Source of the DNA: Escherichia coli
Lineage (GTDB): Bacteria > Pseudomonadota > Gammaproteobacteria > Enterobacterales > Enterobacteriaceae
DNA: 64,000 nucleotides
Direction: 5' to 3' (one strand)
NCBI GenBank assembly: GCA_902500005.1
Contig: GCA_902500005.1_3678.1
Part shown: piece by piece, positions 59,207 through 64,000 of the stretch
Numbering within the stretch: the stretch's first letter is position 1
Layout of the letters: each line of letters starts with the position of its first letter
Program-made: the position numbers and the translations under genes
Notes under the pieces: generated by a model
Seen by the model: only the letters and a program-made list of their open reading frames with translations
Databases searched by the model: none
Told to the model about the DNA's origin: nothing

Positions 59207-59386
59207 AACGGGCAGGCCCGGTGATTGTCTCCCGGCCCCTGCTGCCCCGGCTTGTTATTATAGTATCACACAGGACAAAGAAGGCAAGGATTTTTTGCAT
59301 AAATTTTTAAATGATAATGATAACCGTTCTCATTTTATGAAGCGCCCATCCCCGGTGGTTGTCTCCCCCGTCACCGGTGCCTGCCG
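59207..59386. repeat. GC-rich repeat elements (two direct copies); inverted copy at 63888-63931
   Basis: ggcaggcccggtgattgtctccc (59207) and ccggtggttgtctcccccgtcaccggtgcctgcc (59350); reverse complement at 63890-63931. Confidence 0.5.
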
Positions 59387-59539
59387 TCCTTTCGATAGGT
59401 ATATTATGCCGCCTGGCGGGGCCGCTGTCAACACTTTTCAAAAAATTTTTCTAACCTGATGCGCTAACCGTTGCAACCTGGCGGGGCCAGCCTGGCAGGT
59501 CCGCACTATAAAGTAAACAGCTACAGAAGAGGTACAAAA

Positions 59540-59713
59540 ATGAAAGGTAATGCTACTCGCCTGGGAAATGTAGTGATTAATGATACGGAAGCTATCGCCC
59601 TGGTTGAAAAGGTTATGGCGGGAGCGTTGGAACATAAAGAAGAGTACGAAAAAATGGTGGTTAACCTGGCGGGGGCGGCAGGTGGATTCTATCATAAAAA
59701 TAATTTAAAATAG
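59540..59713 (+). CDS. hypothetical protein (57 aa)
   Basis: ATG after AGAAGAGG; track start 59471 lies in repeat region. Confidence 0.35.
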   Translation: MKGNATRLGNVVINDTEAIALVEKVMAGALEHKEEYEKMVVNLAGAAGGFYHKNNLK

Positions 59714-59716
59714 TCG

Positions 59717-59744
59717 TTGACAACAAGGTTAATCATGGTATTAT
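59717..59744 (+). promoter_or_regulatory. sigma70-like promoter
   Basis: TTGACA-16 nt-TATTAT. Confidence 0.5.
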
Positions 59745-59794
59745 TACCCTACAAGGTGAACAACACCGCACTAACCAGTAAAGAGGATAAATTT

Positions 59795-59992
59795 ATGAAC
59801 GCATACGGGATCAAAGTACGTCGCAACACTCGCCAGGTGGTCACCAATCAAGTGATTTGCCGGGTGGATGTAACCATCAACAACGGGCAAGGCCTTTATA
59901 AATTTCGTCGCGGTCATAGCTATACCCTGCAACAGCTTAATCGTTGCGCCCTGACAAAAGGTCAGATCAACCACTGGTTTAATAAAAAATAA
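59795..59992 (+). CDS. hypothetical protein (65 aa)
   Basis: ATG after AAGAGGA; track start 59717 is TTG of the -35 element. Confidence 0.4.
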   Translation: MNAYGIKVRRNTRQVVTNQVICRVDVTINNGQGLYKFRRGHSYTLQQLNRCALTKGQINHWFNKK

Positions 59993-59995
59993 GTA

Positions 59996-60024
59996 TTGAC
60001 ATACAGTCCGACACCAAATACACT
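59996..60024 (+). promoter_or_regulatory. sigma70-like promoter
   Basis: TTGACA-17 nt-TACACT. Confidence 0.5.
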
Positions 60025-60056
60025 AAAAGCACAAAAGACACTAAGAGGATAAAATC

Positions 60057-60455
60057 ATGAAAACCACTACCTTTAATTTTGATAATGCAGACTTTTCTTT
60101 TTCTGATGTCAAGAACTGCCGCCGTGATCGTGGATTTTACAAGGCTTATAATCTGGTGGGCCTGGACGATGACAATAATTTGCACGAAGTAGCTGAGATC
60201 CGGTATTATGCCGCCGCCAGCGGGAACACTCACTACTGCGTGTTTTGGATTCACGACAACAAGAACAATAAGTACGGTTATACTGGCGGCAAGGCGAGCG
60301 GTCACGGTTACGATAAAGCTAACGCAGCACTTGAGAGCGCATTAAATGCTATGGGGATCACTGCCGACGGCTGGATCTACGAAGAAGAGTTTTTGTCGGC
60401 ACTTGCTGACCACCTGGGCTATAAAAAACACATTGTAACATGCGCCCACGAATAA
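60057..60455 (+). CDS. hypothetical protein (132 aa)
   Basis: ATG after AAGAGGA. Confidence 0.45.
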   Translation: MKTTTFNFDNADFSFSDVKNCRRDRGFYKAYNLVGLDDDNNLHEVAEIRYYAAASGNTHYCVFWIHDNKNNKYGYTGGKASGHGYDKANAALESALNAMGITADGWIYEEEFLSALADHLGYKKHIVTCAHE

Positions 60456-60461
60456 AAATCA

Positions 60462-60489
60462 TTGACACGCTGCAAAATTTAAGTAAACT
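60462..60489 (+). promoter_or_regulatory. sigma70-like promoter
   Basis: TTGACA-16 nt-TAAACT; followed by leader hairpin ggcgggaatgtttcccgcc. Confidence 0.5.
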
Positions 60490-60537
60490 AGACACAAAAG
60501 GCGGGAATGTTTCCCGCCAGCACAAAGGAAAAAGATC

Positions 60538-60933
60538 ATGAATAAGAACGTACGCCGCATCATGAACGAACTGGCAAACGATGAAAAAATTATTGATATG
60601 CATTTGGTCAACATTTGCCGCCGTTGTGTAACATATAACAACCGCGCCGCAAAAGCGCGTGAGATGAACGCAAAAGGCACCTTAAAGCCCTTTCAGGTGG
60701 TTGTAAAATCTATAACTAGCGCAGCAGGCCAGGCGCAGGACCACAACAACGAGAGCGCTAATATTGATCCGTCTTACGTAATGAAACGGATCCGGACTTG
60801 CAAGAATAAAGAGCAGGTATATAACGTCATAGATTGGCTGGACTCCCTGGGCGATGTGGTTTACAATAGGTTTTCTGCAGCTATCGAGATCCAGCTTGAC
60901 AGATTGGACGGGAAAGTACTAAAAACTTATTGA
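60538..60933 (+). CDS. hypothetical protein (131 aa)
   Basis: ATG after AAGGAAAAAG. Confidence 0.45.
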   Translation: MNKNVRRIMNELANDEKIIDMHLVNICRRCVTYNNRAAKAREMNAKGTLKPFQVVVKSITSAAGQAQDHNNESANIDPSYVMKRIRTCKNKEQVYNVIDWLDSLGDVVYNRFSAAIEIQLDRLDGKVLKTY

Positions 60934-60951
60934 GTTTATTTTTAGATGGCC

Positions 60952-60981
60952 TTGACACCAGGGCCATCAATAAAGTAAACT
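60952..60981 (+). promoter_or_regulatory. sigma70-like promoter inside a palindrome (copy 1 of a 45-bp direct repeat)
   Basis: ATGGCC-TTGACACCAG-GGCCAT; -10 TAAACT; 45-bp repeat 60936-60980 = 61557-61601. Confidence 0.5.
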
Positions 60982-61013
60982 AACCACAGTTGAGCGGAAA
61001 AGGAGGCTTAAAG

Positions 61014-61133
61014 ATGAGCACTACACGCCAGCACACAAAGGTAACCATCATCGTTTGCATCATTGGGTACATCCTGGCGCAAATGTTGATGGGTAGCGCC
61101 AACGGTGTCGCAAAATTTTTCTTAAACTTTTAA
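61014..61133 (+). CDS. small hydrophobic protein (39 aa)
   Basis: ATG 7 nt after AAGGAGG; not in ORF track (below its size cutoff); predicted TM segment. Confidence 0.3.
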   Translation: MSTTRQHTKVTIIVCIIGYILAQMLMGSANGVAKFFLNF

Positions 61134-61161
61134 TTGACAAGCTAACTTAAATCGATATAAT
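61134..61161 (+). promoter_or_regulatory. sigma70-like promoter (consensus)
   Basis: TTGACA-16 nt-TATAAT. Confidence 0.55.
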
Positions 61162-61212
61162 AAGCACATAAACGGGAAAACTTCCCAGAACACACAAAAG
61201 GAGAAAAACACC

Positions 61213-61554
61213 ATGACTACTATGACCGCCTCAGAAAAAGCTATGCAGATCGCTGAACTGAAAAAACAGATCGCAGACCTTGAGAATAAGATCGATAACT
61301 TTGAAATCGACGAGGACAAGTACGACGAAAACTATGATGAATGGTTAGACGAGATCTACGGCGAAATTATGATCGGAAACATTTCTTTTCTTCCGTCGCG
61401 TATCCTCAAGGAGCTAGATCCTATCGCTTACCGCTGCGGATTTAGCGACTACATCGACAGCCTGGATATTGAGGACGATGAAGAATACCAGGAATTACAG
61501 ACAGAGTTAGAAGAAGCAAAAGAAGAGCTTGCGGAGCTGGAAGAAAACGAGTAA
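61213..61554 (+). CDS. highly acidic coiled-coil protein (113 aa)
   Basis: ATG after AAGGAG; Asp/Glu-rich (…DEDKYDENYDEWLDEIYGE…DIEDDEEYQELQTELEEAKEELAELEENE). Confidence 0.45.
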   Translation: MTTMTASEKAMQIAELKKQIADLENKIDNFEIDEDKYDENYDEWLDEIYGEIMIGNISFLPSRILKELDPIAYRCGFSDYIDSLDIEDDEEYQELQTELEEAKEELAELEENE

Positions 61555-61572
61555 GCTTATTTTTAGATGGCC

Positions 61573-61602
61573 TTGACACCAGGGCCATCAATAAAGTAAA
61601 CT
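61573..61602 (+). promoter_or_regulatory. sigma70-like promoter inside a palindrome (copy 2 of the 45-bp direct repeat)
   Basis: Identical to 60936-60980 element. Confidence 0.5.
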
Positions 61603-61643
61603 TTATACTGTTAACACTGAACTAATGCATAGGAGTTAAAACC

Positions 61644-61889
61644 ATGGCAGCACTAATCACCAAATATTATGCCCCTACCAACACCAAAAGCGCCCGTATC
61701 ATGGTAAAAGGCTTCGGACGTAAAAAGGTGTACACCTGGGATTATGCCTTAGACACGGAAGACAACTACACCAACGCAATGACCGATTTTATTAATGAAC
61801 TAAATAAGCAGATCTTGACAAGTTATAAAGTGACCGATATTGCTTATATAGGTGAAGGCGGGATCTGTTTTGTAGGCATTGTGAAATAG
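61644..61889 (+). CDS. hypothetical protein (81 aa)
   Basis: ATG after TAGGAG. Confidence 0.45.
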   Translation: MAALITKYYAPTNTKSARIMVKGFGRKKVYTWDYALDTEDNYTNAMTDFINELNKQILTSYKVTDIAYIGEGGICFVGIVK

Positions 61890-61963
61890 TTATTTTTTCG
61901 GTGGTCCTGGTTGCAGGGCCATCTATAAAGATAATTTATTAACACCATGAAAGGAGAAAGTAC

Positions 61964-62317
61964 ATGATCAGCGGGGCAAGTTTTATTATTGGCGCTATTG
62001 CTACGGCTTTAATTGTAAATAAGATCCAGGATAAAAAGGAAAGAGGAAGTACCGCCCTTGCAGAATATCCATTTTGGGCATTCAACGATAACGAAGATTA
62101 TATTATAAAGTATAAAAATAAAGAAGGTGACCAAGTAACACCGCGACCGATCCCGGCTTACAAAATGCAGGAAACACTATACCGCCTGGAGGCGGGGGGC
62201 GCAAAAATTGTAGACTTTTGGGGATACGACCACACAGATCAGGAAGTTATAAAGCGCCGTATCCGGGCTATTCAGGCCAATATTGAAGTTAGCAAGGGGG
62301 GAATATATGAAAATTAA
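61964..62317 (+). CDS. hypothetical protein with N-terminal TM segment (117 aa)
   Basis: ATG after AAAGGAGAAAG. Confidence 0.45.
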   Translation: MISGASFIIGAIATALIVNKIQDKKERGSTALAEYPFWAFNDNEDYIIKYKNKEGDQVTPRPIPAYKMQETLYRLEAGGAKIVDFWGYDHTDQEVIKRRIRAIQANIEVSKGGIYEN

Positions 62318-62504
62318 TTTCGAGAAAATTGTAAAGCGCCCTCATGATTCCGAAGAGCTGCCAGAACGCCGCCAGCGTAACAATAAACTGAATAAGCCAA
62401 AAAGGTTTGGGAAGATCTGGCGTAATCATTATGATCGTAAATTGCCCGGCCTACTTTTGGAACGTGAACGACAGGCAGAACGATACCGCCATAAAGACAA
62501 ATAA
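62307..62504 (+). CDS. basic hypothetical protein (65 aa)
   Basis: ATG after AAGGGGGG (track start 62283 is further upstream). Confidence 0.35.
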   Translation: MKINFEKIVKRPHDSEELPERRQRNNKLNKPKRFGKIWRNHYDRKLPGLLLERERQAERYRHKDK

Positions 62505-62510
62505 CAACCA

Positions 62511-62540
62511 ACGCCCCGCCATTGTGCGGGGCTTTTTATT
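62511..62540 (+). terminator. rho-independent terminator
   Basis: gccccgccattgtgcggggc + tttttatttc. Confidence 0.6.
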
Positions 62541-62661
62541 TCTATCCTACGAATAGCGCCCCTGGTTGGCCCTGTAAGCGCCAAAAAGGCCCCCACCTAT
62601 GCAATCGCCCCTTTAACCTGAAAACATCGCCCAGGGCCGTTTCATGGCGTTAAAAATATCA

Positions 62662-62689
62662 TTGACATCGTCAACAGGTTAGCTATACT
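62662..62689 (+). promoter_or_regulatory. sigma70-like promoter
   Basis: TTGACA-16 nt-TATACT. Confidence 0.5.
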
Positions 62690-62721
62690 AACCACATCAA
62701 AGAGAGAAAGGAGTAAACGCC

Positions 62722-62982
62722 ATGCGTAAATTAAAAAATTTTGATAAAGTTGATGTTATCCTGAATAATTTTTACTACTGCAACAACAAGGCTATTTGGT
62801 GGCGTGATAGTTCCACCGATAAAGTCAGGGCGCGCTTTCTTCAGGGGCACTGGCAAGGCCGCCCAGTGATTAAAATCATGGGGCAATTGGTAGCGTTTAA
62901 AAATTGCCGCCGTGTTGATGACGTTGAGGAGATTTTAAACATTTTGCGCCACAATAATTTAAAAAATAGTGTTGACAAGTAA
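62722..62982 (+). CDS. hypothetical protein (86 aa)
   Basis: ATG after AAAGGAG. Confidence 0.45.
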   Translation: MRKLKNFDKVDVILNNFYYCNNKAIWWRDSSTDKVRARFLQGHWQGRPVIKIMGQLVAFKNCRRVDDVEEILNILRHNNLKNSVDK

Positions 62983-62999
62983 GCCTCAATAAGTATACT
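62972..62999 (+). promoter_or_regulatory. sigma70-like promoter
   Basis: TTGACA-16 nt-TATACT; followed by leader hairpin ggcgggaaaacttcccgcc. Confidence 0.5.
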
Positions 63000-63056
63000 T
63001 AAACACACAGGCGGGAAAACTTCCCGCCACTAACAAAGAAAATAGGAGAAAATATC

Positions 63057-63194
63057 ATGACCACCGTTAACATTACCGCAGGTTACAATTTATCTTTCGA
63101 CGTGCTGACCGACGAACAAAAAGAAAAAGCCGTTGAAATGGTCCGCGAAAGAGAAGAACACAGCGGGGATAACTTTTTTGCAGAAAGAGGATAG
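63057..63194 (+). CDS. small acidic protein (45 aa)
   Basis: ATG after TAGGAG; not in ORF track (below its size cutoff). Confidence 0.3.
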   Translation: MTTVNITAGYNLSFDVLTDEQKEKAVEMVREREEHSGDNFFAERG

Positions 63195-63199
63195 ACACA

Positions 63200-63484
63200 A
63201 TGAAAAAGATGATCGCAGTAGTTGCCCTGGTTGTTGGACTTAATGCGCCTGTAATGGCTAAAGAGCTGGCAAAAGAGGTTGATCTAACGGATATCCATGC
63301 CGTCAATCAAATCGGGGTTACTTATCGCTTATGCCTTGCCGCTAAAACTTTTAATGACGGTACAACAGAGTACTACGGATTCGAGGGTATCCGGTGCGGT
63401 GAGCTTGCTCGCGACCTTAAGGAAGATCCAGACCTGGAGGATCTACCCATAACCGTGAACGGTAAAGCTTACGTTAACCGTTAA
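63200..63484 (+). CDS. secreted small protein with signal peptide (94 aa)
   Basis: MKKMIAVVALVVGLNAPVMA-KE: Sec-type signal with AxA-like site. Confidence 0.45.
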   Translation: MKKMIAVVALVVGLNAPVMAKELAKEVDLTDIHAVNQIGVTYRLCLAAKTFNDGTTEYYGFEGIRCGELARDLKEDPDLEDLPITVNGKAYVNR

Positions 63485-63633
63485 CCGTGAAAAAGATAAT
63501 CATTACCTTGGGGATTGTGGCGGGATCGCTGGCGCTCTTTCCCCTTATGGTTAGATATGTGCTGATCAGTATTGTCCTGGTGGTCAGTGATCTACTAGAA
63601 ACGGTTGGCACCTTGTTTTAAAGAGCGATAAAA

Positions 63634-63825
63634 ATGAATGTTGAACAAGTTAGAAAGGTATTGGCGGTACTGCGTTATCATAATCATAGAAAGGTCATAG
63701 ACGATCCTGATTATGTTGATTCAAGTCTGGAAGAGGATACACTACAAGCCATAAGTAACATGCAAGAATTGCTAAAGCGCATGACAGAGAAAAACCGACC
63801 GGACTACATAGGCGAAAAAATATAA
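63634..63825 (+). CDS. hypothetical protein (63 aa)
   Basis: ATG start. Confidence 0.4.
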   Translation: MNVEQVRKVLAVLRYHNHRKVIDDPDYVDSSLEEDTLQAISNMQELLKRMTEKNRPDYIGEKI

Positions 63826-63841
63826 TCCTTATTAACTAGAA

Positions 63842-63872
63842 AACAGGGCTTGCAATGGTCCTGTTTTTTGTT
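63842..63872 (+). terminator. rho-independent terminator
   Basis: acagggcttgcaatggtcctgt + tttttg. Confidence 0.5.
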
Positions 63873-63887
63873 ATACTTATTACACGG

Positions 63888-63931
63888 CAGGCACCTGGCG
63901 ACGGGGGGGGGGGAGACAATCACCGGGCCTG
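63888..63931. repeat. inverted copy of the 59.2-59.4 kb GC-rich element, containing a G11 homopolymer tract
   Basis: cggcaggcacctggcgacg-G11-agacaatcaccgggcctgcc is the reverse complement of the 59350/59207 elements; G-run 63903-63913. Confidence 0.5.
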
Positions 63932-63958
63932 CCTGTCATATAAGAACTATAAAAACCG

Positions 63959-63987
63959 TTGACATCTGCCAGGTGGTGGGGTAACAT
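63959..63987 (+). promoter_or_regulatory. sigma70-like promoter
   Basis: TTGACA-17 nt-TAACAT. Confidence 0.4.
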
Positions 63988-64000
63988 TTATCTTGAAGGG

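Follow-up and report, generated by a model that had tools for sequence, protein, structure and literature searches.

Stem-loops behind early promoters of an rV5-like Vequintavirus as a probable module of reusable gene cassettes

We describe three hairpins in the presumed early region of an rV5-like Vequintavirus, contained in a stretch of DNA of 64,000 nucleotides (nt) deposited under Escherichia coli (assembly GCA_902500005.1, contig GCA_902500005.1_3678.1; hereafter the window, to whose numbering positions refer). Each hairpin lies directly behind a strong promoter and ahead of the Shine-Dalgarno (SD) sequence of a small open reading frame (ORF). With slightly more than even confidence, we propose that reusable early-gene cassettes have these hairpins as their stem-loop module, which acts in cis at the RNA level; our confidence that they specifically protect the 5' end is lower. 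A preliminary description had noticed the hairpins from the DNA letters alone. Its reading is supported in part, but it missed the wider frame, namely modular cassettes resembling the promoter-early stem-loops (PeSLs) of other phages and a stem-loop placed around the -35 hexamer of neighboring genes.

Leader hairpins at three promoters

The three sites, A, B and C, consist of the following elements.

60462-60489, plus strand: promoter A, TTGACA (60462-60467), 16-nt spacer, TAAACT (60484-60489), AT-rich upstream.
60500-60518, plus strand: leader hairpin A (GGCGGGAAtgtTTCCCGCC), GGCGGGAA-tgt-TTCCCGCC, 8 bp, -13.1 kcal/mol.
60519 onward, plus strand: leader A, A/C-rich and unstructured, SD AAGGA at 60528-60532.
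61134-61161, plus strand: promoter B, TTGACA-16-TATAAT, 12/12 consensus.
61174-61186, plus strand: leader hairpin B, GGGAA-aac-TTCCC, 5 bp, -5.5 kcal/mol.
61187 onward, plus strand: leader B, SD AAGGAG before the ORF at 61213.
62972-62999, plus strand: promoter C, TTGACA-16-TATACT, its -35 overlapped by the stop codon of the upstream ORF 62722-62982.
63010-63028, plus strand: leader hairpin C (GGCGGGAAaacTTCCCGCC), GGCGGGAA-aac-TTCCCGCC, 8 bp, -13.1 kcal/mol.
63029 onward, plus strand: leader C, ACTAACAAAG..., SD AGGAG before the ORF at 63057.

Hairpin A begins 10 nt past the -10 hexamer, at a predicted +4/+5, and all three hairpins are located 10-12 nt past the -10 of a strong σ70 promoter and ~10-26 nt ahead of the SD. 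Their placement between promoter and ribosome-binding site (RBS), as first described, is therefore correct. The promoters match 10-12 of the 12 consensus positions and have aaaaatca, cttttaa and aaaaatagtg upstream. A random stranded position falls 10-12 nt past a promoter-like -10 with a probability of ~0.0012, giving ~2e-9 for three out of three.

Exact matches to GGCGGGAA-N3-TTCCCGCC occur twice in the window (60500-60518 and 63010-63028; 0.00 expected from 100 shuffles), and the core GGGAA-N3-TTCCC has exactly three matches, which are sites A, B and C. The near-identical hairpins reported earlier are thus present, with the start at 60500 confirmed and the other, given as 63011, shifted by one position. 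The weaker hairpin reported at 61172 is also real; the stretch concerned (aCGGGAAaacTTCCCa) spans 61172-61186, and pairing within it is confined to the 5-bp core at 61174-61186. RNA folding gave z-scores of ~-3.9 for both 8-bp hairpins and -1.9 for hairpin B, a value that is weak by itself. Hairpin B reads as a decayed paralogue of hairpin C, having an identical loop and lacking the three outer pairs. In folds of the leaders, the hairpin forms by itself, the A/C-rich sequence behind it is without structure at all three sites, and the SD stays unpaired. If transcription begins at the usual 7-8 nt past the -10, the unpaired 5' tails are predicted to be 3-4 nt at sites A and C, ~6 nt at site B, and 3-5 nt in the phages inny and 121Q discussed below.

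In GenBank, the homologue of 60500-60518 in phage EdH4 is labelled 'putative transcriptional terminator, -14.00', and the record of phage Alma has a terminator feature beneath site C.

Conservation of pairing

Orthologues were drawn from individual GenBank phage records (a search with the downstream protein gave two IMG/VR loci), with divergence limited to at least 89% identity. Among eight Vequintavirus genomes, variable columns make up 6/42 of the stem, 6/9 of the loop, 13/32 of the spacer between -10 and stem, and 23/73 of the leader. The stem is less variable than loops and flanks taken together (42/114; flanks alone 36/105; Fisher p=0.006). Even the 5-bp site B is conserved among orthologues. 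In one orthologue of site C, on the IMG/VR contig L125, a C-to-T change (GGTGGGAA) produces a U.G pair. Other variants are mixed, with outer pairs weakened in Gotham and V18. The site-A loop of L125 is exactly inverted, from TGT to ACA. Site C of V18 (L132) is a chimera, in which the spacer, upstream sequence and 5' arm of site B are joined to the 3' arm and downstream sequence of site C, suggestive of gene conversion across the 1.8 kb that separates the two cassettes.

To assess pairing further, 23 hairpins whose loops are 3 nt long were aligned without gaps. Standard pairs are formed by 88% of the alignment cells, and five of the nine pairs have changes on both sides (26 cells). Covariation at this level was reached in none of 500 shuffles, and pairing fell to 42-62% when the partner was displaced by 1-3 columns. 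The core stems contain six G.U pairs and no A.C. This pattern favors selection on pairing rather than on a particular stem sequence. Because pairing is kept while loops are free, the purine-rich arm is 5', and a U-tract is missing, an RNA stem-loop is favored over a DNA operator or an intrinsic terminator. The earlier suggestion of a conserved leader stem-loop acting at the RNA level is accordingly the reading with the best support: stems are kept, loops and flanks vary, and pairing is held by compensatory changes.

A family of promoter-hairpin cassettes

The EdH4 genome, reassembled whole from four loci, contains the core GGGAA-N3-5-TTCCC four times, always within the early block and always behind a promoter. 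The fourth copy, CGCGGGAAtacTTCCCGCC, follows TTGACA-16-TAAAGT at the same distance from the -10 (10-12 nt). Further early promoters of EdH4 carry the hairpins GGGGC-aacaa-GCCCC, GGGCA-aaag-TGCCC and GGGCG...CGCCC, and the cassette with the last of these is near-identical, from the hairpin through into the ORF, to a cassette of inny.

Most matches in an exact IMG/VR scan for GCGGGAANNNTTCCCGC were unrelated terminators; others showed this stem following promoters of 121Q (Asteriusvirus) and of a phi92-like phage. We then scanned all strong promoters in ~40 kb of early-region sequence from 121Q and from inny (Justusliebigvirus). Many of these promoters share one layout, consisting of promoter, 10-15 nt, hairpin, ACTAAC-like leader, SD and ATG. 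A hairpin of -8 kcal/mol or lower occurs just past the -10 in 10 of 24 promoter-SD-ORF units of inny and 13 of 32 of 121Q, as compared with 7% and 6.5%, respectively, of random 36-mers. The distance from -10 to stem is mostly 10-14 nt in the family. Stems vary widely (GGCGGGAAA/TTTCCCGCC, GGGCGGCA/TGCCGCTC, GTGGGGAA/TTCCCCAC, GGGGAGAA/TTCTCCCC, GGGGC/GCCCC, GGGGGGAA/TTCTCCCC with one G.U pair, and AGGGGAAA/TTTCCTCT), as do loops (tgt, aac, tac, aca, caa, tag, tgg and cac). The 5' arm is purine-rich, specifically G-rich, in 28 of 28 unique copies.

A covariance model built from the 23 aligned hairpins matched the 64-kb window only at 60497 (30.9 bits), 61168 (21.4 bits) and 63007 (31.8 bits), all on the plus strand. 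Early-region sequence of inny and 121Q gave many matches, with the coding strand always scoring higher; as the alignment consists of sense strands, this strand preference is partly built in. The 100 kb of EdH4 that encode replication and structural proteins gave no match.

At the sequence level the links are narrower. BLAST of the 91-nt site-C cassette found Vequintavirus only, with no connection to other families. The exact 19-mer occurs in GTDB genomes at no fewer than 121 unrelated bacterial loci, none of them behind a strong promoter, and 38 of 121 such occurrences have a terminator-like T-run. As the 19-mer occurs in these bacteria without a link to promoters, the stem sequence itself is not diagnostic. 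Rfam, searched at a permissive threshold across 59500-64000, had no match to the hairpins and two chance-level matches elsewhere. Searches of the literature on rV5-, phi92- and 121Q/RaK2-like phages turned up neither a description of such leader hairpins nor start-site data.

Early cassettes are shared among Vequintavirinae, Stephanstirmvirinae and 121Q-like phages and appear to have moved between subfamilies. A cassette running from promoter through hairpin and leader to the ORF start, GGGCGGGGCAATAAGGCAACGCCC ATTAATGAGGGTAGAATCATG..., is near-identical in EdH4 (~3442 of locus L001) and inny (25894 of locus L133). In 121Q (locus L134), repeats at ~20797, 27166, 30860, 34158 and 36082 have TTGACT-17-TATTAT followed by ...tagcccacagggtgc... 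and no downstream ORF, and possibly represent small RNAs or a regulatory repeat of another kind.

Comparison with known stem-loop elements

PeSLs are composite cassettes of the T4-like phages RB49/phi1, PST and nt-1 (PMC2839356, PMC4122927). They fall into five subclasses by stem-loop position, one of which is "downstream of the -10", and their stems have a G-tract followed by a C-tract, with G-T pairs tolerated (PMC2839356). Attenuation of transcription arriving from upstream has been suggested as the role of the stem-loop; by recombining with one another, PeSLs shuffle genes and give rise to mini-circles (PMC2839356).

All architectural features of PeSLs are found in the window cassettes. 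These comprise an AT-rich region and a strong σ70-type early promoter with an adjacent stable G-tract/C-tract stem-loop, ending on the 3' side in an SD and the start codon of a small ORFan; the early region, itself plastic, has many such units. The stem-loop lies past the -10, as in the one subclass, and there are signs of exchange between copies, here the V18 chimera and the inverted L125 loop. However, the cassettes belong to Vequintavirinae, Stephanstirmvirinae and Asteriusvirus instead of T4-like phages, and they have no homology to the RB49 elements, whose stems are GGGGATC...GATCCCC. The RB49 stem-loops are mostly located between or over the promoter hexamers, whereas the hairpins described here, and nearly all of those in inny and 121Q, belong to the transcribed leader, at an almost constant distance from the -10. 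They also lack a U-rich tail. Terminator activity and mini-circle formation are features of the T4-like elements. Judged by sequence, the window hairpins are analogues rather than homologues of RB49 PeSLs.

Emory, Bouvet and Belasco reportedly described, in 1992, 5'-terminal stem-loops that stabilize the E. coli mRNAs ompA and papA. As with the stabilizing stem-loops of ompA, papA and the T7 gene 10 leader (cited in PMC3997798), the hairpins in the window are simple and stable, start a few nt from the predicted 5' end, depend on pairing more than sequence, and leave the RBS accessible. They differ in that the predicted tail of 3-5 nt reaches or exceeds the length at which RppH and RNase E can still be blocked, and in forming a multi-copy family on mobile cassettes.

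Genomic context and neighboring elements

The window is 99.5% identical to phage EdH4 over the aligned positions 59525-63187 (~3.7 kb). Small ORFs with no assigned function form an array in this region, each with its own promoter. Such a layout constitutes one of four transcription units with host-type promoters in the rV5 paper (PMC3606486). That the hairpin-bearing genes are early is suggested by promoter type and gene content. The ORFs behind the hairpins encode 45-131 amino acids (aa), and PHROG searches with the flanking proteins led to families of unknown function only. The ORFs and two further candidate cassettes are as follows.

60538-60933, plus strand: ORF behind hairpin A, 131 aa, phrog_13245, function unknown.
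61213-61554, plus strand: ORF behind hairpin B, 113 aa, phrog_9294, function unknown.
63057-63194, plus strand: ORF behind hairpin C, 45 aa, truncated homologue of phrog_5162 / 121Q ORF271.
59717-59767, plus strand: probable weak member, TTGACA-16-TATTAT (59717-59744), 10 nt, GGTG-aacaa-CACC (59755-59767), then GCACTAACC.
63959-64000, plus strand: cassette cut by the window end, TTGACA-17-TAACAT, ttatcttgaa, GGG...

The weak member at 59755-59767 has a 4-bp stem of -4.4 kcal/mol, which is not significant by itself. The cassette at 63959-64000 continues in EdH4 as GGGGCA-aaag-TGCCC. Relative to EdH4, the window has a 4.6-kb deletion (L001 11663-16252) with a junction at 63180-63187 (8-nt overlap). 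The deletion removed several more promoter-hairpin cassettes, including the fourth EdH4 copy of the motif, and truncated the gene after hairpin C, itself a homologue of 121Q ORF271, to 45 aa (homologues, ~200 aa). The junction consists of coding, SD-like microhomology and lies outside any hairpin.

A second kind of stem-loop occurs in this array. A ~45-nt repeat (tttttaGATGGCCTTGacacCAGGGCCATCaataaagTAAACT) at 60945-60968 and 61566-61589 forms a 10-bp stem-loop enclosing the -35 of the next promoter (-20.2 kcal/mol, z-score -6.2). It has a variant at 61902-61921 and a further copy in EdH4 (L001 ~13747), and its position makes it another type of PeSL-like element within this array.

Further elements occur in the region. 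A canonical terminator at 63837-63870 (plus strand) carries the -35 hexamer TTGCAA in its loop and is followed by TGTTATACT and by a structured, ORF-less transcript start with a run of 11 G at 63884-63937 (plus strand). A partial inverted copy of the 63837-63937 element lies on the minus strand at 59354-59431, behind the promoter 59431-59403. The element may be a small non-coding RNA or a leader. In addition, at least 17 GenBank records numbered MG0656xx ('Campylobacter phage' C12, A142, etc.) are 90-99% identical to rV5-like coliphages over this region, and their Campylobacter jejuni host labels look doubtful.

Proposed function and its limits

We propose that a cassette is built, in order, from an AT-rich upstream region, a near-consensus σ70 promoter, a G-rich/C-rich stem-loop, an A/C-rich leader, an SD and a small ORF. 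Host RNA polymerase would transcribe the stem-loop as the first structured element of the early mRNA (predicted ~+4 to +23). The position of the hairpins, their pairing, the way they are conserved and their spread across phage families are observed; transcription from the adjacent promoter and any role in stability or insulation are inferred by us. A stable hairpin near the 5' end would limit the single-stranded tail available to RppH and RNase E, and it could shield the leader and RBS from base-pairing to RNA further upstream. Structured 5' ends are known to stabilize E. coli mRNAs, as both enzymes depend on a single-stranded 5' end (PMC3997798). In transcripts reading through from the preceding cassette, the same hairpin might weakly attenuate transcription or form a barrier at the 3' end. 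Being conserved, the cassette would also supply homology for exchange and shuffling between cassettes.

Several points weigh against this proposal, beginning with the 5' end. For RppH and RNase E, two unpaired nt suffice and three or more are preferred (PMC8833179). With a tail of 3-5 nt, as calculated from predicted start sites, protection of the 5' end would be partial at best. The classic ompA work is said to have set the limit of the tail at 2-4 nt. Stem-loops around the -35 cannot be 5' leaders, so the role is perhaps not tied to the 5' end, and in RB49 PeSLs the stem-loops are found between -35 and -10. Strong early promoters at 59996 and 62662 have no hairpin at all, and hairpin B is weak (z-score -1.9). 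The evidence from covariation is overstated, since the hairpins were picked for folding (an ascertainment bias) and include many paralogues, and independent G.U events number only ~3-4, as against 1-2 A.C events in orthologues (Gotham and V18). Less exposed to this bias, the variability of orthologue columns, the G.U pairs of core stems and the constant 5' position of the purine-rich arm point in the same direction as the covariation. The fixed spacing and purine-rich 5' arm could have been inherited through paralogy instead of being selected.

Alternative explanations

One alternative, which we consider unlikely, is that the hairpins are intrinsic terminators or attenuators halting transcription from the upstream cassette. 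They resemble terminators in having a G/C-rich stem of 5-9 bp and a short loop, and annotation pipelines call them such, as did the EdH4 and Alma annotators. A PeSL stem-loop with no clean U-tract lowered downstream lacZ as much as rrnB T1 did (PMC2839356), and termination would fit the finding that almost all early intergenic regions here have one stem-loop, irrespective of where it stands with respect to the promoter. However, the sense-strand tails lack a U-tract (AGCACAAAGG, ACUAACAAAG, AGAACACACA, and likewise ACTAACAAAG), as they do in inny and 121Q, which argues against efficient intrinsic termination. The hairpin also comes after rather than before the next promoter, past its -10, so that the promoter's own transcripts would abort at ~+23, and canonical U-tract terminators exist separately in the region (62513-62532 and 63837-63870). 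A terminator scan listed the hairpins on the minus strand only. Antisense termination was rejected, as the T-rich tail of that strand occurs only in rV5-type copies and is absent from inny and 121Q.

It seems to us distinctly unlikely that the hairpins are instead bound, as RNA, by a trans-acting factor of their own that marks early transcripts, be it an antiterminator like N, a repressor of translation, a protein that protects the RNA or a nuclease involved in shut-off. The apical GAA-N3/4-TTC is common to most copies in three phage families, and the whole stem is common to four rV5-type copies. Sites of the nut and put type lie just downstream of a promoter, and the hairpins resemble the lambda nut and HK022 put sites in being promoter-proximal RNA structures of early transcripts. 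Unlike those sites, each hairpin is single and short, and many promoters have a copy of their own. Loop sequences differ freely, unrelated stems (GGGGC/GCCCC, GGGCGGCA/TGCCGCTC) occur elsewhere in the same genomes, the leaders have no boxA-like CGCUCUUA and no Rfam match, and no candidate protein, N-like or other, was identified. A boxA-like reading of ACUAACAA was discarded because the GCUCUU core is missing. The translational-repressor or antiterminator target raised in the preliminary description therefore lacks support. Protection from RNases, also raised there, is plausible.

A narrower version, in which the GAA-N3/4-UUC apex tags the early transcripts of rV5-, phi92- and 121Q-like phages, three unrelated groups of large virulent coliphages, for one phage or host factor, strikes us as improbable. 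Were it true, the factor could shield early mRNAs while the phage speeds up RNase E-dependent decay of host mRNA, or serve in processive antitermination or timed shut-off, and the hairpins would be a portable 'early regulon tag' travelling with gene cassettes.

It is equally improbable, in our judgment, that the hairpins have no function in expression and persist only as substrates for recombination or gene conversion of a spreading cassette. Such a history would account for the V18 site-C chimera, the inverted site-A loop in the IMG/VR relative, and the sharing of cassettes among Vequintavirinae, Stephanstirmvirinae and 121Q-like phages, and recombination of PeSLs does yield mini-circles (PMC2839356). 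However, stems are more constrained than flanks in orthologues, and pairing has been kept among old paralogues by compensatory change, neither of which homology alone requires. The sole large indel seen here (63180-63187) has no junction in a hairpin.

A palindromic DNA operator at +4 to +22, through which a dimeric repressor would shut off some early promoters, is very improbable: perfect 8+8 palindromy around a spacer that is always 3 bp long and variable in sequence, half-site centers 11 bp apart overlapping the initially transcribed region, and a stem identical at A and C and near-identical at the fourth EdH4 site are compatible with it when A and C are viewed alone, but half-sites are not the same at all promoters and different stems occupy the same place in other cassettes of the same lineage, compensatory changes keep a pairing that an operator would not need, the purine-rich arm is always 5' and core stems have G.U but no A.C, site B is conserved at just 5 bp, and the 19-mer occurs at 121 unrelated bacterial loci with no link to promoters. 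The protein-binding DNA site entertained at first is thereby disfavored. Cleavage by RNase III was rejected because the stems are too short, and SD sequestration or a thermosensor because the SD is open in the folds.

Implications

The hairpin family is apparently undescribed, and conceptually it is a variant of known PeSL cassettes and 5' stem-loops rather than a new regulatory principle. It offers a simple case for the effect of a hairpin with a 3-5 nt tail on decay by RppH and RNase E. If the hairpins are indeed a cis-acting RNA module of early cassettes, ~40% of the sampled early promoter units in a phi92-like and a 121Q-like phage would share one design, and several rV5-like units would likewise use a consensus promoter, a 5'-proximal hairpin and an open A-rich leader. 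This reading would also correct a systematic mis-annotation of the hairpins as terminators in GenBank. The cassette would be a compact, portable expression unit, which would explain the immediate expression of newly acquired small genes, and the PeSL idea of mobile regulatory cassettes would reach beyond T4-like phages.

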